Positions 6,602-58,039 of a stretch of DNA of 64,000 nucleotides are shown here, piece after piece. The notes beneath the pieces are model-generated. The model made no database searches, was not told where the DNA came from, and saw nothing but the letters and a program-made list of their open reading frames with translations. Position numbers and translations under genes: made by a program. Source of the stretch: an uncultured Gammaproteobacteria bacterium (GTDB taxonomy: Bacteria > Patescibacteriota > Microgenomatia > CAZXEC01); NCBI GenBank assembly GCA_964639595.1, contig CAZXEC010000001.1, forward strand, positions 88,111 to 152,110. Direction: 5' to 3'. Position 1 is the stretch's first letter. Each line of letters starts with the position of its first letter.

Positions 6602-8764
6602 ATGGAAAAAATAGTAAAAGAGCTAGATTTAGTTGGTAAAAAATTAAGCCTAGAAACCGGCCGTTTTGTTAAACATGCCAACGGTTCAGTCCTGGCGCGT
6701 ATCGGCGATACAGTAGTTTTGGCTACCGTGGTCATGTCAGTCCCCCGCCAAGATTTAGACTACTTTCCCCTATCAGTAGATTACGAGGAAAGACTTTATG
6801 CAGGAGGTAGGATTTCTTCTTCTAAATTTATCAAACGAGAAAATCGCCCTTCAGAGGCGGCAATCTTAGCAGGCAGATTAATTGATAGGTCAATTAGACC
6901 CCTTTTCCCCAAAGATCTTAACAATGAAGTTCAAGTAATTACTACGGTATTGTCGTTTGATGGAGCTAATGATGCGGATATGGTGGCATTATTGGGAGTG
7001 TCGGCAGCCTTGGCTATTTCTGATATTCCTTGGAAAGGCCCTATTAGTGCAGTGCGGGTCGGCTTGGTTGAAGGAGCGTATATTTTTTATCCCACCAGAC
7101 AAGAATTAGCCAACTCACAGCTTGATTTGGTTGTATCAGGAGGAAAAGACGGAGTAGTTATGGTTGAGGCTGGGGCTCGTGAACTGGCTGAGCAAGAAAC
7201 AATAACAGCCATTACCCAGGGTCAGGAATTTAATTTGAAACTGGTTTCTTTTATTGAAGATTTTGTCAAGGAAGCTGGAAAGTCCAAGGCAGCCTATACT
7301 ACCAAGACCCTTGACCCTGAACAGGAAAAAGCAGTCAGAGACTATATAGAAAAAGAATTTATTCCGCAGTTGTCTGACCCAGAAGTAGCGCAAGACGAGC
7401 AATTTGCCCCGATGTGTTATCAGAAACTAGAAGAAGTTTTTAGTGAAACAATAGCCAAGGGACAGTTAGTCCATCTGTTGGATGATTGTGTGAAGAAGTT
7501 TATTAGAAAACAAATCCTGGAGAAAGGTAAAAGGATTGATGGCCGCAAAAATAATCAGATTCGGCCTTTAACAATTGAAGTAGAAGTTTTACCAAGAACT
7601 CATGGGTCTGCACATTTTAAACGCGGTGATACCCAAATCTTGACTATTGTCACATTAGGCTCTCCTTCACTGGAGCAATTAATTGAAGGGATGAGGGGTG
7701 AAGAAACCAAAAGATACATGCATCATTATAATTTTCCACCTTTTGCCACTGGTGAGGTTAAAAGAATTGGGACAACCGGTAGGCGAGAAATCGGTCACGG
7801 TGCATTAGCAGAAAGAGCTTTAATTCCTGTTCTGCCACCAGAGGAAAAATTCCCTTATGCTATTAGGGTAGTGTCTGAAGTGTTAACCTCTGCCGGTTCT
7901 ACTTCGATGGGTTCTGTCTGCGGTTCTACTTTGGCATTAATGGATGCCGGGGTACCGATTACTGCGCCAGTGGCTGGTATTGCCATGGGGCTTGTGACCG
8001 ATGCGGCGTCTGATAAATACGTAGTTTTGACAGACATTGCTTACGCAGAAGATGCTGGTGGTGATATGGACTTCAAAGTAGCAGGAACAGAGAAAGGCAT
8101 CACTGCTTTGCAGATGGACGTTAAACTAACAGGGATTCCAGCCAAAGTTTTGGCGCAAGCCATTGCTGAAGCACGGGAAGGTAGAATGTTTATCTTGGGT
8201 AAGATGAAAGAAGCTTTGCCGGAAATCAGAGGAGAAGTTTCCCCTCATGCCCCCAGGATACAAATGATTAGTATTGACCCAGCGAAAATTGGTCAAGTGA
8301 TCGGTTCCGGTGGTAAAACCATAAACCAGATTATAGCAACCACCGGAGTCGCCATTGATATTGAAGATGATGGGAAGATTACTATTACCTCCAAAGATCA
8401 AACAGCCGCCCAGAAGGCAATTGGCATCATTGAAGGTTTAACCCATGAGGTAAAACCAGGCGAAATATATGAAGGCGAAGTAAAAAGAATCATGACTTTC
8501 GGGGCTTTTGTGGAGATATTACCAAGCAAAGAAGGTCTAGTTCACATTTCACAACTGTCTCCTGTTAGGGTAGAAAGGGTAGAGGACGTGGTACAGATTG
8601 GGCAGAAGGTTAGAGTGAGAGTTACTGAGATAGACCCGCAAGGTCGAATTAACTTATCTATGAAGTTTGGTCAAGATGCAGAGGATAATCCCAGAAGAGA
8701 TGATCATCGTTCCATCATCAGAGGCGACTACAGCGGGGAGAGGTTCAGACGGAAGAGATTTTAG
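6602..8764 (+). CDS. pnp: Polynucleotide phosphorylase (PNPase)
   Basis: Two RNase PH-like domains, then a KH domain (IGQVIGSGGKTINQI) and an S1 domain. The ATG at 6602 was chosen over the upstream TTG at 6584. Confidence 0.93.
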   Translation: MEKIVKELDLVGKKLSLETGRFVKHANGSVLARIGDTVVLATVVMSVPRQDLDYFPLSVDYEERLYAGGRISSSKFIKRENRPSEAAILAGRLIDRSIRPLFPKDLNNEVQVITTVLSFDGANDADMVALLGVSAALAISDIPWKGPISAVRVGLVEGAYIFYPTRQELANSQLDLVVSGGKDGVVMVEAGARELAEQETITAITQGQEFNLKLVSFIEDFVKEAGKSKAAYTTKTLDPEQEKAVRDYIEKEFIPQLSDPEVAQDEQFAPMCYQKLEEVFSETIAKGQLVHLLDDCVKKFIRKQILEKGKRIDGRKNNQIRPLTIEVEVLPRTHGSAHFKRGDTQILTIVTLGSPSLEQLIEGMRGEETKRYMHHYNFPPFATGEVKRIGTTGRREIGHGALAERALIPVLPPEEKFPYAIRVVSEVLTSAGSTSMGSVCGSTLALMDAGVPITAPVAGIAMGLVTDAASDKYVVLTDIAYAEDAGGDMDFKVAGTEKGITALQMDVKLTGIPAKVLAQAIAEAREGRMFILGKMKEALPEIRGEVSPHAPRIQMISIDPAKIGQVIGSGGKTINQIIATTGVAIDIEDDGKITITSKDQTAAQKAIGIIEGLTHEVKPGEIYEGEVKRIMTFGAFVEILPSKEGLVHISQLSPVRVERVEDVVQIGQKVRVRVTEIDPQGRINLSMKFGQDAEDNPRRDDHRSIIRGDYSGERFRRKRF

Positions 8765-50396: not shown

Positions 50397-50816
50397 ATGC
50401 AATCAACAGCCAGCGTTAAAGCCAAAGATATTAAAAGACAGTGGCAACTAATTGATGCCAGAGACCAAATTTTGGGCAGGATGGCTACCAGGATTGCCAC
50501 GCTTTTGCTGGGTAAGGGCAAGCCGTATTTTGTTCCCCATATGGATTGTGGTGATTATGTAGTAGTGGTCAATGCCGGCAAGGTTAAAACCACTGGTCGT
50601 AAACAAGAGCAAAAACAGTACAGTCGGTATTCAGGTTATCCGGGCGGACTCAAAAAAACATCCCTGGCTATCTTGAGAGAGAAAAAACCAACAGAGGTAA
50701 TCAAACATGCAGTGCGGGGAATGATGCCGCACAATAAATTAGGCCGGCAAAGTATTAAAAAATTATTTGTTTTTGAGGGGGGAAATCATCCCTATCAAGG
50801 TCAGGTGAAAAGCTAA
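50397..50816 (+). CDS. rplM: 50S ribosomal protein L13
   Basis: WQLIDARDQILGRMATRIATLLLGK. Confidence 0.93.
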   Translation: MQSTASVKAKDIKRQWQLIDARDQILGRMATRIATLLLGKGKPYFVPHMDCGDYVVVVNAGKVKTTGRKQEQKQYSRYSGYPGGLKKTSLAILREKKPTEVIKHAVRGMMPHNKLGRQSIKKLFVFEGGNHPYQGQVKS

Positions 50817-51268
50817 TGCCCAGAAAGAAAAAAGCAGCGCCGGTTATCAAGGAAGTAGTAAGTGAGAAACCTAAAGAGCAGGTAGTCTATCAAGCGGTGG
50901 GCCGCCGCAAATCGGCAGTGGCTCAAGCCAAACTTTTTGCCGGCGCCGGTAACTTAACGATTAACAGTCACCCCATATTGCAATATTTTTCCGGCCAGGT
51001 ATCAAAGCTGGCTTGGCAAAAACCTTTTCAAACAGTGGGAGCATTAGGTAAATTTGACGGTACGATTAAAGTTTACGGCTCCGGCAAAAGCGGCCAACTG
51101 GTGGCAGTTACTCATGCCATCTCCCGCGCCCTGCTGCAAGTCAATCCGGATTGGAGAAAGCCTCTCAAAAAACAAGGACTTTTGACCCGTGACCCCAGAG
51201 TTAGGGAAAGACGCAAATACGGCAACGCCCAAAAAGCGAGAGCGAAAAAGCAGTCACCCAAACGATAA
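50816..51268 (+). CDS. rpsI: 30S ribosomal protein S9 with an N-terminal extension
   Basis: YQAVGRRKSAVAQAKL...RERRKYG. Confidence 0.93.
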   Translation: MPRKKKAAPVIKEVVSEKPKEQVVYQAVGRRKSAVAQAKLFAGAGNLTINSHPILQYFSGQVSKLAWQKPFQTVGALGKFDGTIKVYGSGKSGQLVAVTHAISRALLQVNPDWRKPLKKQGLLTRDPRVRERRKYGNAQKARAKKQSPKR

Positions 51269-51422
51269 ATATTTTCGCCCGAAGTCCTGCTAAATCACTG
51301 CACATAACAAATTTTAAACGGGGAATTATACCTAAAGGCGAGCGAGGGCAACGGAAGCCGCTTCCTCGCCGATTCAAGGAGTGAGATATTCGTATTAAAT
51401 AAACACATCCTAATATTAGCTA

Positions 51423-51451
51423 TTGACAAGCTTGGCAGTTTATGCTATACT
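51423..51451 (+). promoter_or_regulatory. Near-consensus sigma70 promoter driving the island operon (TTGACA-17 nt-TATACT)
   Basis: TTGACA 51423-51428, 17-nt spacer, TATACT 51446-51451. Lies about 30 nt upstream of the first island ORF. Confidence 0.6.
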
Positions 51452-51480
51452 AGTCTCTGTTTTTAGATAAAATCAAAAAA

Positions 51481-51696
51481 ATGTCAGAGACACGTAAAGA
51501 AAAATTTGTAAGGTTAGCAACTTATCGGACTAATGTTGTGTTAGAGAAGCTCCGCATCCTCGGCAACCTTTCCAACAAAGCTAACTATGAATACTCCGAA
51601 GAGGAAATAAATAAAATCTTCTATGCTATTGATTCACAACTCCGGATCATAAAAGCTCGTTTTAGTGGTAAAAGGAAAAGAGAGTTTAAATTATGA
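51481..51696 (+). CDS. Hypothetical small basic protein (71 aa), first gene of the island operon
   Basis: No recognisable motif. Overlaps the next ORF by 4 nt (ATGA). Confidence 0.45.
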   Translation: MSETRKEKFVRLATYRTNVVLEKLRILGNLSNKANYEYSEEEINKIFYAIDSQLRIIKARFSGKRKREFKL

Positions 51697-52262
51697 AAAG
51701 AACCAGAAATACATTAGATGATTTACTCTTGCTTTGCATTAGTGATATTTTGGGGAAAAAACAAAAGTGTTCCTACGGAAATCTTGTTAAAAAGGCCTCT
51801 ACGAAATATCCCGAAGTTTTTAGTTTGTCAGATTATCCCAAATGGCCAGATTCTCTTAAGTTGGATCGGCCACTAAGGCAATTAAGAAGTGAAAGATTGA
51901 TAACAGGTAGCCCGACAACGTTTTATTCGTTGACTTCTCTGGGTAAAGAAAAAGTCAGATTTTTAAACAACAAACGGTTTCCGGTAAAAGACAACACTAG
52001 TAGGCCAACAAGAAGCCCCTCTTTGACATTTCTAAAAGAACTAGAAAATAGTGATGACTTTAAAGATTTTGCTTCAAACAAAGAAGACTTCAAGCCAAAT
52101 AATATGAAAATAAGAGCTCTGACAAGATTTACTCTAGAGACGCCTAAGAAAGTTATTTTAGACCACTTGCTCTTTTTAAAAAAAACTGCTCATCGAGAAA
52201 AAAAGGGAACTTTGGAAGATTTTTTAATCACTTACATAAATTACATCGAAAGAATTAAGTAA
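51693..52262 (+). CDS. Hypothetical protein with a putative N-terminal winged-helix domain (189 aa)
   Basis: Helix-turn-helix-like N-terminus with a wing-like ...LRSERLITGSPTTFYSLTSLGKEKV. Only 2 nt separate it from the downstream ATPase gene. The fold assignment is inference. Confidence 0.45.
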   Translation: MKRTRNTLDDLLLLCISDILGKKQKCSYGNLVKKASTKYPEVFSLSDYPKWPDSLKLDRPLRQLRSERLITGSPTTFYSLTSLGKEKVRFLNNKRFPVKDNTSRPTRSPSLTFLKELENSDDFKDFASNKEDFKPNNMKIRALTRFTLETPKKVILDHLLFLKKTAHREKKGTLEDFLITYINYIERIK

Positions 52263-52264
52263 AT

Positions 52265-54163
52265 ATGGATTTTCAAAGCGCAGAGTCGGGGCAACTGTCA
52301 GTTAACGAAGGAAGGTTAGTTAAGTCTCTTGCAGATAGTACAGTTAGAGGCATAATGGACGCAGTTGTAGAACTAGTAACGAATTGCGACGATAGCTATG
52401 TACGTCAAGAGCAAGAAGGTAGTAATTCTTCTGGTAGGATAGACCTCTATATTGATCGAGGTGCTGGTGGACATTGTAAAGAATTGAGGGTAATCGATGA
52501 GGCGGCCGGCATGGATTACCAAGCATTACGAAGAGCAATAGAATTTAGCGGGGAAACCAGCGGTTTTAAAGAAGGAAGAAGTGTCAGGGGTTTTTTTGGA
52601 CGCGGCCTAAAAGAATCCATACTCGCTTTGGGGATAGGGACGATATTTACCTTAAAAAAAGGTGTTCTTAGCAGAGCAATTATTTCTTATGACGAAAAGG
52701 AAAGGCAATCAAAATACGACCTATCAGTTCCTGTACAGAACCTTTCACAGGAAGAATTAATTAATTATGGTTTTTCGGGCAATTCAGGGACTTTAGTAAC
52801 AATTAAGATAACAAACACAAAGAAAGATTACATCCCAGGAAGAAATCATATAAAAGAACAGTTCCTAAAACACTATGCTTTCAGAGATATTAATTCTTCC
52901 ACAAAAAGAGCAGTGTATTTACACTTCTCGGATGTAGAAAGTAAAGATAAATATAGCTCAAATATCCCATTGGTTTATAAATGGCCGGAAGGGAAATTAG
53001 TTTTCGATAAGGATATGAAAATACTTAATTCAGTAGCTCATTTTAAAATTTACGAGAGCTTAGAACAGTTGCAAACTCCTAAAAATCCTACTGGTGAAGC
53101 AGGTCTATTGATAAAGACCGAAGGGGCGATTCTGGACAACCAATTATTTGGCTTCGAGACTGATCCAAACGGTCTATTTTTCTTCGGAGAAATAACTGCT
53201 CCGGGGATAGCCCAAGCAATTAGAAGCGGTGATGAATCTATCGTGGATACCAACAGAACAGGTTTAGCTCGGAACCACCCGTATAATAAAGAGCTTGAAA
53301 ATATAAGTAAGGAAATTCTAGGAAAACTTATTCAGGAAAGAAAAGAAAGACTAAAATCAGAGAAAAAAGCTGAGTTGGCAGAACCTATAAATAACCTTTT
53401 TAATAAATTATGCAAAGAATTATCAGATCTAGCAAAAGATGAACTCGAGGATAAGGAACCTGGTCCAGGAGAAGTCAAAGCATTTATGATCAAGCCTCTT
53501 TTTGCAAACATAGACCCTGAATCACCTAGGACACTTTCCGTATATTGTCCAAAGTATTTATCAGAAGATGAAGGAACAAAGGTTGTAAATCTTTTGAGTT
53601 CTAACGGGAATATAAAATTATCTAATGAATCCATAATTCTTGAACAATACAAAAGAGACCCAGATGTACTAAAGTCAACTTTTAAATTAAATGGAGAAAA
53701 CGAAGGCGAAGTGGCTCTAATAACGGCCACATTGGGACGAGTTACCGCCAATAGTGAAGTAAGGGTGCATAAATTAGGACACATAGGTCCAGGCTCAGAA
53801 AAACCTCCGACTGGTTCAGGAGGAGGAGTTTTTAGAAAGATAGAGCCTGCTTATGATGAAAGCCCAATACAAAGATTTGAATATGTTTCTGGAGGAATAA
53901 TAAAAGTATATATAAAGTTTCCTGGAGTTGGAGACATTTTAGGAGAAAATTTTGAGACTATAGAAACTCAGGGTGCAAGAGTCGCATTATCAGAGATTGT
54001 TATAGAAGCGTTTTCAAGACATATTTCCAGACAACGAGTTGGAAAATATGTAGAGGAGCAGATAGACCCTTTTACATCAGAGATGGATAGATTAAGAAAG
54101 AAAGCCACAAAGACTGTTTATAATATCCTTCTCCGAGCAGATTTGAGAGAATTATTAAATTAG
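52265..54163 (+). CDS. GHKL-superfamily (Bergerat-fold; MutL/MORC/histidine-kinase-like) ATPase, 632 aa, with a long domain of unknown function
   Basis: N-box ELVTNCDDS, G1-box RVIDEAAGMD, G2-box GFFGRGLKESILALGIGTIFT, all within the first 130 aa. No Hsp90 middle-domain signature. No HK dimerisation/His box. Confidence 0.75.
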   Translation: MDFQSAESGQLSVNEGRLVKSLADSTVRGIMDAVVELVTNCDDSYVRQEQEGSNSSGRIDLYIDRGAGGHCKELRVIDEAAGMDYQALRRAIEFSGETSGFKEGRSVRGFFGRGLKESILALGIGTIFTLKKGVLSRAIISYDEKERQSKYDLSVPVQNLSQEELINYGFSGNSGTLVTIKITNTKKDYIPGRNHIKEQFLKHYAFRDINSSTKRAVYLHFSDVESKDKYSSNIPLVYKWPEGKLVFDKDMKILNSVAHFKIYESLEQLQTPKNPTGEAGLLIKTEGAILDNQLFGFETDPNGLFFFGEITAPGIAQAIRSGDESIVDTNRTGLARNHPYNKELENISKEILGKLIQERKERLKSEKKAELAEPINNLFNKLCKELSDLAKDELEDKEPGPGEVKAFMIKPLFANIDPESPRTLSVYCPKYLSEDEGTKVVNLLSSNGNIKLSNESIILEQYKRDPDVLKSTFKLNGENEGEVALITATLGRVTANSEVRVHKLGHIGPGSEKPPTGSGGGVFRKIEPAYDESPIQRFEYVSGGIIKVYIKFPGVGDILGENFETIETQGARVALSEIVIEAFSRHISRQRVGKYVEEQIDPFTSEMDRLRKKATKTVYNILLRADLRELLN

Positions 54164-54175
54164 CGTCAACAACGA

Positions 54176-54409
54176 ATGTTTCAAGCGAAGAGGGCAAAAA
54201 AAATTACAATCGGTCAGGATGGAATCTATCTACTTAGACTAGCGCTTGAATCTTTTGAAGTCATTACCGAAGGTTTCAATCGGCAGGTCAATAAATTCCC
54301 AAGTATGCAATCTTCAATAAGGGCAAGAAAGATAATTCCAAAACTTAACAAGGCGATAATCGAAATACGGACAATTATTAAAAGACTTGAGAGAAATCTT
54401 AACTTTTAG
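54176..54409 (+). CDS. Hypothetical small protein (77 aa), last gene of the island + operon
   Basis: 12 nt downstream of the ATPase gene. Basic and helical. No recognisable motif. Confidence 0.4.
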   Translation: MFQAKRAKKITIGQDGIYLLRLALESFEVITEGFNRQVNKFPSMQSSIRARKIIPKLNKAIIEIRTIIKRLERNLNF

Positions 54410-54430
54410 GCTTAAAGATACCTATTATAT

Positions 54431-54487
54431 AAAAAGTTCTTTCCTCCTTCGCTAGGGCTACGGAAAGACAGGTAAAATTTTTGCGTG
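54431..54487. repeat. Copy A of an imperfect direct repeat of about 50 bp (AAAAGTTCTTT...TAAAATTTTTGCGTG)
   Basis: Shares an 11-nt 5' core and a 14-15-nt 3' core with copy B at 55829-55878. Located in the convergent intergenic gap. Confidence 0.5.
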
Positions 54488-54490
54488 ATT

Positions 54491-55114
54491 TTATCCTCTT
54501 TTAATCTTTTTCCAAAATCCGTCTGGAACGACCACTAATTTTAGAAAACTTAACCTTACCAGGAGACTATCAGCTGTAACTTCAAATTCTTGAGCCAGAT
54601 CGGGAAAAGTATCTGGAAGATCAAAAACCGAACAGGGGGTTGGAATACGATTTCGGCTCATAAATTGATCCCATCTTTCCTTCAAGACTTTTTCCGGCAT
54701 TAATACCATACTAGCAAAAGTTCTGGCTTGTCTTTCAATATAGTCGAATAACTTATTATCTAATTTCTCCTGCCATGTTATATATGGTTCTAAGCCTTTT
54801 GGGCCATCCTTGCTGTACCATTCTTTGTGAAGATATAAATGACCGATTTCCTCAGCAATAGTAAATCTTATTCGTTCCGGTTGTTTGGTATACATTCCTT
54901 CGTCTATCACGATAGAATCGAAGTTTTGGTTAATAAATGCATTTACTCCAAAATTTTTGATCAATCCACTAATTAAGATAATCCTAAGTCCTAATTTTAA
55001 TTCAGCTATATCCTCAATAGGTACTGGAAGAGTTAAAGAAGGATGACAATTTTCTAAAAATAAATTCGCTTGATTCTTAACGTCCTGAATATTTATCTCG
55101 TTGGGATTTTTCAT
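54491..55114 (-). CDS. ImmA/IrrE-family (M78-like) metallopeptidase-domain protein, second gene of the HTH-peptidase pair
   Basis: RFTIAEEIGHLYLH aligns to the ImmA/IrrE HEXXH helix, but the first His is replaced by Glu. Directly abuts the upstream HTH gene. Confidence 0.65.
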   Translation of the reverse strand: MKNPNEINIQDVKNQANLFLENCHPSLTLPVPIEDIAELKLGLRIILISGLIKNFGVNAFINQNFDSIVIDEGMYTKQPERIRFTIAEEIGHLYLHKEWYSKDGPKGLEPYITWQEKLDNKLFDYIERQARTFASMVLMPEKVLKERWDQFMSRNRIPTPCSVFDLPDTFPDLAQEFEVTADSLLVRLSFLKLVVVPDGFWKKIKRG

Positions 55115-55501
55115 TCATTTGTCTAGTAGAGTTATTAACTGCTCCAGTTTTTTTCTATCCAGTTTTTTATTTCTCATGGTTCTGAAGAATGCTGGTAGCA
55201 GATCATTTATATTTTCTTGATTTTTTATATCTGTGGGGATTTGTCCTTTGGCTGTATGTGCCAAATCATGAAATTTAATCCATTCTTCAGTGTCACGTTT
55301 TATTTTCAGAGCAGTTGCATATCCTGCTAATTTTTCATCATCTAGCGTAGGCGGCAAGATATTTCTTTCAAGTCTACTGATATTTCCTGGATCATAACCA
55401 TATCTTTCGCAAAACGCACGAAGGGAAAATCCAAGTTCTATTCTCTTTACTCTGAAGAAATCACCGAAATTTTGATTAGAAGCATCTTGAATTTTATTCA
55501 T
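55115..55501 (-). CDS. XRE-family helix-turn-helix transcriptional regulator
   Basis: FRVKRIELGFSLRAFCERYGYDPGNISRLERN, a Cro/C1-type HTH. ATG at 55501 chosen. The track ORF extends to a GTG at 55525, which lies inside a palindrome. Confidence 0.7.
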   Translation of the reverse strand: MNKIQDASNQNFGDFFRVKRIELGFSLRAFCERYGYDPGNISRLERNILPPTLDDEKLAGYATALKIKRDTEEWIKFHDLAHTAKGQIPTDIKNQENINDLLPAFFRTMRNKKLDRKKLEQLITLLDK

Positions 55502-55502
55502 A

Positions 55503-55556
55503 GTGTTGTAATAATAATACAACACTATTCTAGTATAGACTTTGACAGGTTGTCAA
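55503..55556. promoter_or_regulatory. Two operator-like inverted repeats in the divergent HTH/HNH promoter region
   Basis: GTGTTGTA-ATAATAA-TACAACAC (55503-55525). TTGACA-GGT-TGTCAA (55542-55556), the latter carrying a -35-like TTGACA. Confidence 0.55.
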
Positions 55557-55569
55557 GTTTTGAAAGGAG

Positions 55570-55812
55570 ATGAAGGTAAAAAATATAATGAATTATAAAT
55601 GTAGATATTGTGGATGGACAGGTCCAAGAAAAGATTTCGAGATTGACCATGTAATCCCAATTGTTAGGTCAATTTTACAGAATATCTTACAGCCAGCGCT
55701 AGATTTAATTTGTTCTGGTTGCAACAGACAAAAAGGCAGAATGACAGGAGCAGGATATATGGAGATTGCTAAATTCATTCGAAGCAAATTTAGGACCAAT
55801 TATCTAAAATGA
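55570..55812 (+). CDS. Small standalone HNH endonuclease (80 aa)
   Basis: CRYCGW...FEIDHVIP...N...CSGCNRQKG, the HNH beta-beta-alpha-Me with two CxxC pairs. Confidence 0.75.
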   Translation: MKVKNIMNYKCRYCGWTGPRKDFEIDHVIPIVRSILQNILQPALDLICSGCNRQKGRMTGAGYMEIAKFIRSKFRTNYLK

Positions 55813-55828
55813 AAAGATTGAATTTTTG

Positions 55829-55878
55829 AAAAGTTCTTTGCCTCGCCTTTGGCGAGGGGCGTGTTAAATTTTTGCGTG
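55829..55878. repeat. Copy B of the roughly 50-bp imperfect direct repeat; contains the CCTCGCC-TTT-GGCGAGG hairpin
   Basis: AAAAGTTCTTTG CCTCGCCTTTGGCGAGG GGCGTGTTAAATTTTTGCGTG. Confidence 0.5.
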
Positions 55879-55909
55879 TCAAATAATTGGCCTACCGAAT
55901 TTTATCAAA

Positions 55910-55943
55910 TTAACTAATCTCACCTGTTAACTAATCTCACCTG
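55910..55943. repeat. Perfect tandem duplication of the 17-mer TTAACTAATCTCACCTG
   Basis: 55910-55926 and 55927-55943 are identical. Confidence 0.8.
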
Positions 55944-55968
55944 GGAAGTGGATTAGCTTGACACCGAT

Positions 55969-56814
55969 TTAAGAAAATTTCAAAATTTGATCAAGTTTGT
56001 TGTTAGGAAATAAGTCTTTTGGATAAATAGAGATAACATTTAACCTTTGTTGTTGCCAGAACTTTTTCTTTCTTGCAATCAAAGCGTCGTATGCTTTAAC
56101 CTCTCCTTTTAATCCAAAAAATTCAATAAGACAGCCATTAACCTTAAAATCGGCAGTCATATTATCCTTACCGTAAGGAATATTTCTATCGTGGAGAATT
56201 TTTCTAGCATAAAACCAATCATCAATAATCTTCTCAGTTAATGAGTCGCATTTGTGTCCATCATTAGCAATATACTTTTTGGCATACTTAACCGGGTTAG
56301 GATTAAAACCTGCAGCTATGATAGCAGCATTCCAGCTACCAAAGCGAAGGCGTGCTGCTTTGTGTTGGCTAAATTCTCTTTTAAGAGGAATCCTTCCAGT
56401 CTTTTTATAGAACGATTGAATTTGCTCAATAATTATTTCTTTTACTATAATTTGACCAGCATTTTTACACGCCTTTGAGCAATACTTCTCTCGACCTTTA
56501 AATTCTTTATTGCAATAACCACACATTTTAATAACAGCATGCCTTTTGGGAAATCTTGAGTTATTTATTGTCGCTGCGCAAGAGCGAGAGCAATAGTAAG
56601 ATCTGGCATTCTTGAGTTCCTTCAATTGCCGTTTGAAGATCTTGCCACAAGAAGGATTAGTGCAGATAAGCGCTTTTTGTTTATTTCTTGCCTTGCTTAT
56701 ACATTCTAGAGAGCAATATATATTCCAGTCAAACTTTTTACCTTCATTGATTCTCCCTTGACTACGAAGAATAATTTTTTTACATCGATCACATTTAACA
56801 GGCAAAAGTTCCAT
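55969..56814 (-). CDS. Multi-zinc-ribbon protein with a C-terminal Vsr/DUF559-like PD-(D/E)xK endonuclease domain
   Basis: Six or more CxxC pairs in the N-terminal half. C-terminus DSLTEKIIDDWF...ADFKVNGCLIEFFGLKG...YDALIARKKKFW...LNVISIY matches the Vsr/DUF559 core. Start codon is 2 nt from the tRNA-like 3' end. Confidence 0.6.
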   Translation of the reverse strand: MELLPVKCDRCKKIILRSQGRINEGKKFDWNIYCSLECISKARNKQKALICTNPSCGKIFKRQLKELKNARSYYCSRSCAATINNSRFPKRHAVIKMCGYCNKEFKGREKYCSKACKNAGQIIVKEIIIEQIQSFYKKTGRIPLKREFSQHKAARLRFGSWNAAIIAAGFNPNPVKYAKKYIANDGHKCDSLTEKIIDDWFYARKILHDRNIPYGKDNMTADFKVNGCLIEFFGLKGEVKAYDALIARKKKFWQQQRLNVISIYPKDLFPNNKLDQILKFS

Positions 56815-56815
56815 G

Positions 56816-56889
56816 TCGGGGGAACTGGTTCCGCCCCAGCGACCTCTCGCACCCCATGCGAGTGCTCTAACTATCTGAGCTACCCCCCG
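56816..56889 (-). tRNA. tRNA-Pro(GGG)-like gene, 74 nt, CCA not encoded, atypical D- and T-loops
   Basis: Minus-strand RNA is CGGGGGG-TA-GCTC-AGATAGTTA-GAGC-A-CTCGC-ATGGGGT-GCGAG-AGGTC-GCTGG-GGCGGAA-CCAGT-TCCCCCG-A. C1:G72 pair and A73 fit tRNA-Pro. Anticodon loop has U33, GGG, G37. The D-loop lacks GG and the T-loop is GGCGGAA, not TTCRANY. Confidence 0.55.
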
Positions 56890-56980
56890 AATATTGTTAT
56901 TTTACCATAAAAGAAGCCTGTTAAATACCAGTTGATTTTTCACCATCAGATGATATACTGCCCCTAAAAGAAAAAAACTT

Positions 56981-58039
<1,059 letters not shown>

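Follow-up and report, generated by a model that had tools for sequence, protein, structure and literature searches.

Four nucleotides of the tRNA elbow, G18, T54, Psi55 and A58, are near-universal in cytoplasmic elongator tRNAs, and they underlie gene finders, TrmA, TruB, TrmI and the models of elbow recognition. In the folded molecule the elbow bases stack in the order A58-G18-G57-G19-C56, and the ribosome, RNase P and T-boxes recognise this stack by its outer face, the G19:C56 pair (PMC4810234). As a motif, the T-loop comprises five nucleotides: position 2 is U or G, positions 1 and 5 form a pair that can be of several kinds, a base intercalates between positions 4 and 5, and two bulged nucleotides come after. 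Riboswitch T-loops follow YGNRA, with an intercalator that is almost exclusively an adenosine, and one rRNA T-loop reads GGAAG (bioRxiv 10.1101/2022.12.26.521914). As for tRNAs themselves, a review of non-canonical forms lists only tRNAPyl, tRNASec and mitochondrial cases without G18/G19/T-Psi-C (PMC7609411). A further described system matters here because of what lies next to our gene: the homing endonuclease I-Bth0305I, which cleaves next to its own insertion site (PMC3239194). In this work we describe what reads, from its sequences, as a family of tRNA-Pro(GGG) genes conserved among tiny groundwater bacteria (Microgenomates), in which four near-universal elbow nucleotides appear to have been replaced in coordination. 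Our search of the literature, whose coverage was incomplete and which leaves an earlier description possible, returned no account of this variant or of any G54/G55/A18 tRNA.

The gene that led us to the family lies on the minus strand at positions 56816-56889 of the window, by which we mean the whole 64-kb stretch of DNA analysed. It is 74 nt long, from C1 (56889) to A73 (56816), followed by C74 (56815), and does not encode CCA. Its sequence, CGGGGGG UA GCUC AGAUAGUUA GAGC A CUCGC AUGGGGU GCGAG AGGUC GCUGG GGCGGAA CCAGU UCCCCCG A, adopts as its minimum free energy fold exactly the cloverleaf that a sequence-only reading had drawn (-32.7 kcal/mol; z = -2.2 against shuffles, a modest value for a single sequence), with stems of 7, 4, 5 and 5 bp, a variable loop of 5 nt, C1:G72, A73 and U33-GGG-G37, and the covariation of the family, presented below, is decisive in its favour. 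The same reading had held that the D-loop lacks G18G19, that the T-loop lacks T54-Psi55-C56 and A58, and that both partners of the D/T interaction had been lost together. Placed in register, the D-loop AGAUAGUUA (56868-56876, minus strand) runs A14 G15 A16 U17 A18 G19 U20 U20a A21, with A18 (56872) in place of the universal G18 and with G19 (56871) kept, and the T-loop GGCGGAA (56829-56835, minus strand) runs G54 G55 C56 G57 G58 A59 A60, with positions 54, 55 and 58 changed and C56 kept. The first two statements are thus correct for G18 and for positions 54, 55 and 58 but not for G19 and C56, and the third has to be abandoned, because G19:C56 is intact and what has changed are the inner contacts, 18-55 and 54-58. 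Indeed, the elbow departures of the window tRNA are confined to G18→A, U54→G, U55→G and A58→G, and U8, A14, G15:C48, A21, G46, U33, G53:C61, purine 57 and G19:C56 are all intact.

The anticodon loop (56851-56857, minus strand) reads A32 U33 G34 G35 G36 G37 U38, with the anticodon at 56853-56855. The identity set of E. coli ProRS consists of G35, G36, A73 and G72, all of which are present by sequence in the window tRNA, as is G37, the m1G37 site. We infer that ProRS would charge the variant and that the ribosome would use it. It would then decode CCC and CCU, at a locus where related genomes have a canonical tRNA-Pro(GGG). Codons for a GGG anticodon are common here, since CCC and CCU make up 355 of the 795 proline codons (45%) in the long ORFs of the window (CCA 256, CCU 185, CCG 184, CCC 170). 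The variant gene would be dispensable if the four CCN codons were all read by a tRNA-Pro(UGG), and the genome may also have a second, canonical tRNA-Pro(GGG) outside the window.

Relatives of the gene were sought on public metagenome contigs with the pattern TGGGG-N6-ANGT-N5-GGGCGGAAC-N8-CCGA, which fixes the loop bases and the CCGA end, leaves the stems unspecified except for G53:C61 and C70-G72, and specifies neither A18 nor G19. It returned 60 loci (individual loci and contigs are given below by their L numbers), which together with the window amount to 37 distinct sequences (alignment A2). Followed in the 5' direction, each of the 60 completes a full tRNA-Pro(GGG) cloverleaf, and their D-loops follow the scheme AG-N-N-A-G-N-N-A. 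Across the 37 distinct sequences every stem cell is paired (777/777), with standard pairs throughout, and in 13 of the 21 pairs both partners have changed in a compensatory way (102 cells). The score for covariation, 0.422, falls to 0.132 ± 0.010 on shuffling (0 of 500 shuffles reach 0.422) and to at most 0.065 when the partners are slid. A18 and G19 are invariant in all 37, and so are the core tertiary nucleotides outside the search pattern. The universal set of G18, U54 (T), U55 (Psi) and A58 is absent from the window and from the family, which carry A18, G54, G55 and G58 instead; for the T-loop, the invariance among the 60 loci is imposed by the pattern itself. The complete pairing, the covariation and the invariance of A18 and G19 are the mark of purifying selection on the tRNA fold and not of decay. 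This bears directly on the proposal, made in the sequence-only reading, that the gene is a degenerate pseudo-tRNA or an att remnant of the neighbouring island, for which 21 intact pairs of 21 in the window, and the compensatory changes elsewhere, are hard to accommodate. The divergent flanks of the 60 loci also exclude their origin in one sequence through an assembly artefact.

Other properties delimit the family. A covariance model built from alignment A2 (R1) gives its members 95-102 bits (window 99) and canonical tRNA-Pro genes 37-72 bits. C74 follows A73 in all 61 copies (family loci L086-L146) and CCA is encoded in 13 of them; this one encoded C, right behind the discriminator, may act as a determinant of processing or of CCA repair. 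No other tRNA species with the same T-arm was found by regular expression in 535 kb of related loci, which hold few other tRNAs. Viral contigs gave no match to the variant pattern, so that a phage origin is not supported.

Most members of the family escape standard annotation. ARAGORN, which had been named as a check in the first reading of this DNA, reports in bacterial mode no tRNA anywhere in the 64-kb window, and none at 56816-56889 with thresholds at 60%; its mitochondrial mode alone makes a call there, mtRNA-Pro(ggg). Rfam likewise reports no tRNA, whether at the gathering threshold or, for the 301 or 84 nt around the window tRNA, with the limit at E<=10. In the family at large, ARAGORN in default mode reports 21 of the 60 loci and misses 39, and the Rfam tRNA model (RF00005) reports a single one of the seven copies searched, window included (L125, with 48.6 bits for a gathering score of 29). 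L146, L130, L087, L094 and the window copy go unreported, though they are nearly identical family members; low scores may account for this silence, but filters are the more probable cause. For comparison, the canonical tRNAs of L125 and L147 reach 58-74 bits. Where tRNAs are G-rich, a negative scan should be read with caution. Rejection by tRNA finders is the first of the observations that a pseudogene would explain. Given how often both tools miss the family, it has a broader consequence: tRNA-Pro(GGG) will score as absent in many CPR genomes, biasing inferences of decoding capacity and of genome completeness.

The surroundings of the gene are conserved as well. In the window, rplQ-rplM-rpsI (49.9-51.3 kb) is followed by a block of low GC content, by a 281-aa homing-endonuclease-like gene (HEG) and the tRNA, both on the minus strand, and by recA-recX-rny-hup on the plus strand. 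Searches of the family loci with the window proteins (tblastn) recover the order rplQ-rplM-rpsI-(HEG)-tRNA, divergent from recA-recX-rny-hup. A candidate extended -10 element, TGGTAAAAT (56899-56907, minus strand), ends 10 nt upstream of tRNA position 1. A TGnTAAAAT-like element (TAnWWT) lies within ~25 nt upstream in 29 of 47 distinct family upstream regions, for a background of 14%, and most of the remaining regions have the same -10-like element slightly farther upstream; a strict two-hexamer promoter scan made no call at TGGTAAAAT.

The low-GC block that separates rpsI from the HEG (51.4-55.9 kb; 51481-55812) has a GC content of 0.34-0.37 against ~0.43, and is absent from relatives, where rpsI adjoins. 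Besides small ORFs it contains genes for a 632-aa HATPase_c_3 protein, an 80-aa HNH protein and an ImmA/IrrE (CapP-like) peptidase paired with an XRE regulator, which gives it the look of a regulated island, defensive or mobile, devoid of an integrase. The presence of such an island is the second observation that an att remnant would explain, and the tRNA had been described as sitting at its boundary. This holds loosely, but the gene that actually abuts the tRNA, the HEG, is in relatives a conserved partner of tRNA-Pro(GGG) and not island cargo, and the island lies beyond it. When 50800-57000 was searched for repeats, the 3' part of the tRNA did not recur at the far end of the island, and no integrase domain was found within the island; we have rejected the att-site reading on these two grounds.

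The third such observation is that the closest relatives are canonical. The window belongs to a Candidatus Daviesbacteria MAG (Microgenomates, CPR), and its RecA and the 281-aa neighbour of the tRNA are identical to proteins of GCA_016198195.1. A RecA scan of genome contigs gave 80 loci, most of them from other phyla owing to the strong conservation of RecA, with L003, L004, L054 and L064 as the informative ones. A canonical tRNA-Pro(GGG) is found beside recA in L083-85, L003-4, L054, L147 and L149-151, among them all six of the RecA relatives nearest to the window (L083-85 and L149-151, several labelled Daviesbacteria). The sequence-only reading had advised looking at homologous loci in relatives, and would have taken rejection by the tools, together with canonical genes elsewhere, as the sign of a pseudogene. 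The tools do miss the gene and the closest Daviesbacteria are canonical; the same variant loops recur, however, in many other Microgenomates, and for this reason the test would have misled. Since the stems covary, and since synteny and the promoter element are kept across more than 60 loci, we regard a pseudo-tRNA or att remnant as refuted for all practical purposes, with a probability close to nil. It is the other possibility raised at the outset, that of a genuinely unusual functional tRNA, that covariation, conserved synteny and recurrence in other Microgenomates support. Judging from these features, the gene is very probably an expressed and functional tRNA-Pro(GGG) whose elbow has been re-implemented, orthologous by position to the canonical gene.

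How the two alleles came to coexist at one locus can be approached through a RecA tree (single gene, neighbour-joining, 200 bootstraps). The window, with its variant, groups with the canonical L083-85 at 94.5%; the canonical L004 is nested in a clade supported at 100%, the other eight members of which carry the variant; and the canonical L147 is sister to six variant loci, again at 100%. The variant needs four coordinated changes, which makes a repeated origin or a point reversion unlikely, and the interleaving of alleles on this tree points to several allele replacements at the locus, unless recA has itself recombined. The window lineage may also have kept the variant by vertical descent, since the upstream synteny, with rpsI adjoining the tRNA, is common to this lineage and to the variant loci; it is absent from the Daviesbacteria crown group. 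In one Daviesbacteria contig (L151), a called ORF for a 604-aa serine recombinase (Resolvase; 1156-2970) overruns the canonical tRNA-Pro(GGG) (2799-2869), just upstream of recA. This recombinase may belong to another mobile element that exploits the tRNA locus.

Variants that our pattern could not have imposed are informative about the elbow itself. A second subtype, found by R1 at 77.7 bits and missed by ARAGORN, lies on the minus strand of L064 (7353-7425), 575 nt upstream of recA in a MAG labelled Saccharibacteria, and encodes its CCA. Its D-loop AACUAGCA and T-loop GGCAGCA give A18 G19 and G54 G55 C56 A57 G58, with other bulged bases. An intermediate elbow is found in the tRNA-Pro(GGG) of L153 (2425-2495; the same in L154 and L155), where the D-loop AAUAGUA has A18 G19 and the T-loop UGCAAUC has U54 G55 C56 A57 A58; an endonuclease-like gene begins 5 nt later, in a different genomic context. 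Both the L064 and the L153 tRNAs keep U33-GGG-G37. Contigs L147, L148, L152 and L153-155 were reached through homologues of the 281-aa protein, and the others among them carry a C55 form of tRNA-Pro (L148, 3912-3982; AGCGGUA / UCCAACU) and canonical tRNA-Pro(GGG) genes (L147, AGUUGGUA / UUCGAAU; L152, AGUUGGGUA / UUCGAAU). G18 is present in all 11 canonical tRNA-Pro(GGG) genes (U55) and in the C55 gene of L148. Among all the genes examined, then, A18 occurs if and only if G55 does, with positions 54/58 being either U/A or G/G. That A18 tracks G55 follows from the intermediate (L153-155) and from the second subtype (L064), which were found independently of the pattern and carry A18 with G55. 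On L125, C55 also occurs outside tRNA-Pro, in Thr-UGU (8219-8291; T-loop UCCGAAU) and in Trp-CCA (8527-8600; UCCGAUU), a hint that Psi55 is not required there.

By its letters, the variant is compatible with the T-loop motif: two nucleotides that vary come after GGCRG, and A18 and G55 covary. By analogy with described T-loops, the most likely interpretation is that the elbow has been re-implemented and not lost. The outer G19:C56 platform, G53:C61 and purine 57 are retained, and in our proposal the T-loop would have switched flavour, from U54 U55 C56 R57 A58 with G18 intercalating to G54 G55 C56 R57 G58 with A18 intercalating. The stack would be retained as G58-A18-G57-G19-C56, and the inner contacts would be swapped, A18-G55 taking the place of G18-Psi55, and G54-G58 that of T54-A58. 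The tRNA would thus fold into its L-shape, G54 and G58 forming the closing pair and A18 touching G55.

Why the elbow should have changed is a separate question, and the neighbouring HEG (55969-56814, minus strand), which we characterised through Pfam (PF18780), an AlphaFold (AF2) model and Foldseek, offers one possible answer. Its 281-aa product contains three CxxC...YCSxxC zinc ribbons, an HNH_repeat (PF18780, 'homing endonuclease associated repeat') and a C-terminal Vsr/EDxHD-like nuclease domain. The AF2 model has a pLDDT of 85.8, and its best PDB match is the catalytic domain of I-Bth0305I (3r3p; TM 0.73, prob 1.0), followed by Vsr and TnsA. E194, D198, H208 and D222, as well as the Cys residues, are invariant in an alignment of 32 homologues, and in our reading of this alignment the four would map to the EDxHD motif. 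Its homologues, ~283 aa in length, number at least 775, and those that carry a name come from Levybacteria and Daviesbacteria; NCBIfam, a PDB sequence search and PADLOC gave nothing decisive for the 281-aa protein beyond a PDC-S69 match. On every contig opened the gene follows tRNA-Pro(GGG), in three genomic contexts. It comes directly after the tRNA in 22 of the 60 family loci, and does so also in L146, L147, L148, L152 and L153. In four of the 22 (L099, L133, L137, L138) it is decayed, through frameshift, truncation or fragmentation, which is consistent with the decay phase of the life cycle of homing endonucleases in a family that is overall well conserved. The protein was also considered as a dedicated partner of the variant elbow; this idea was rejected, since the gene also follows canonical tRNA-Pro(GGG) genes (L147, L152).

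The junction between the two genes is tight. The ATG of the HEG (56812-56814) comes 1 nt after C74 in the window, and the gap from C74 to the ATG is 1-5 nt in at least 12 loci; at least 11 loci other than the window have a gap of 2-3 nt. This leaves no room for a ribosome-binding site or Shine-Dalgarno sequence, and the HEG mRNA may be released nearly leaderless by the 3' processing of the tRNA. The T-loop itself was considered as a Shine-Dalgarno for the HEG ORF and excluded by spacing, as 18 nt or more separate it from the ATG. Such an arrangement could suggest that the RNA is tRNA-shaped and works outside translation, as a processing or punctuation signal from which the nearly leaderless HEG mRNA is freed, or as a donor of proline to a non-ribosomal reaction, in the manner of the staphylococcal cell-wall tRNA-Gly; tRNAs without G18/T54/Psi55 are, moreover, often specialised (tRNAPyl and mitochondrial tRNAs; PMC7609411). 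Yet most variant loci have no downstream HEG, the variant takes the place of the canonical decoder at this locus, and neither the anticodon loop nor G37 nor the ProRS identity set is lost, with U33-GGG-G37 also preserved in the independent L064 and L153 copies. With its decoding and identity features conserved and most loci lacking the HEG, a role of the variant outside translation seems very unlikely to us.

A conflict with the HEG is compatible with a functional tRNA. In this scenario the enzyme would recognise the tRNA-Pro(GGG) gene near its own insertion point, in line with I-Bth0305I, which cleaves beside its own (PMC3239194); changes in the T-loop DNA would resist cutting, A18 would compensate for them in the RNA, and the HEG-plus-tRNA cassette would spread by gene conversion. 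Immediately 3' of tRNA-Pro(GGG), an EDxHD/Vsr-like HEG does occur in several genomic contexts unrelated to one another, and the T-loops beside it are unusually diverse (UUCGAAU, UCCAACU, UGCAAUC, GGCGGAA). The interleaving of canonical and variant alleles on the RecA tree (94-100% bootstrap) and the HEG decay in 4 of 22 loci, as the homing cycle predicts, would also fit, as would the placement of the window HEG among HEGs from another RecA clade. However, these trees are single-gene neighbour-joining trees, and HEGs are just 46-62% identical between loci, which gives no sign of recent transfer. Fully canonical tRNAs can have the HEG next to them as well, ~38 of the 60 variant loci lack it, and the Thr-UGU and Trp tRNAs of L125 deviate at position 55 without any HEG. 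On balance we consider a conflict of this kind an unlikely, if arguable, source of the elbow change. Its most explicit form, an arms race over the DNA of the T-loop, the most conserved loop in biology, in which the HEG drove UUCRA → UGCAA → GGCRG with a compensating G18→A, the resistant allele spreading among Microgenomates lineages by co-conversion and the leaderless mRNA being a by-product, strikes us as improbable. A relaxed constraint in Microgenomates is another reading of the elbow change, in favour of which the C55 of Thr-UGU and Trp-CCA on L125 can be cited; by their sequences, U55/Psi55 may be generally relaxed in the lineage.

Whatever drove the change, the very probable functional tRNA-Pro(GGG) described here can be set against what is known of other systems. 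The canonical bacterial tRNA-Pro(GGG) (E. coli proL type) shares with it the cloverleaf, C1:G72, A73, the GGG anticodon, G37 and a 5-nt variable loop, as well as the 9-nt D-loop on a stable 4-bp D-stem, a feature of tRNA-Pro recognised by EF-P (PMC11231383). In Microgenomates both also occupy the same genomic position, beside recA. The variant differs from it by G18→A, U54→G, U55→G and A58→G, and because of the last three it cannot carry m5U54, Psi55 or m1A58. Like the T-loops of riboswitches and rRNA, it has a G at motif position 2, a purine at position 4 and two variable bulged nucleotides on the 3' side (AA or CA); its presumed intercalator is an adenosine, as in riboswitches, and it has G at positions 1 and 5, as in the GGAAG loop of rRNA. 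Unlike in those RNAs, this flavour sits in a tRNA elbow and is combined with the tRNA-specific C56:G19. By analogy, the T-loop flavours of riboswitches and rRNA may therefore be able to stand in for the usual one inside a tRNA.

The family also departs from the universal D- and T-loop nucleotides as tRNAPyl and the type II metazoan mitochondrial tRNAs do, and those tRNAs function (PMC7609411). They lose G19:C56 and alter loop sizes or stems, whereas the family keeps standard loop sizes, the core tertiary positions and G19:C56. Replacing four positions and yet keeping this pair makes it, together with the A18-G55 intermediate, a natural experiment on which features of the elbow are required. 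The HEG, for its part, resembles I-Bth0305I and the EDxHD enzymes in joining N-terminal DNA-binding modules to a Vsr-like C-terminal nuclease domain (PMC3239194), and resembles both I-Bth0305I and SegB of phage T4 (in a tRNA gene cluster) in being free-standing beside a highly conserved gene. With tRNA and endonuclease so tightly paired, the idea of a selfish gene bound to one tRNA becomes open to test here. The HEG differs from I-Bth0305I and SegB in that the 281-aa protein, a putative nuclease, has three zinc ribbons and sits in Microgenomates chromosomes, directly 3' of one tRNA.
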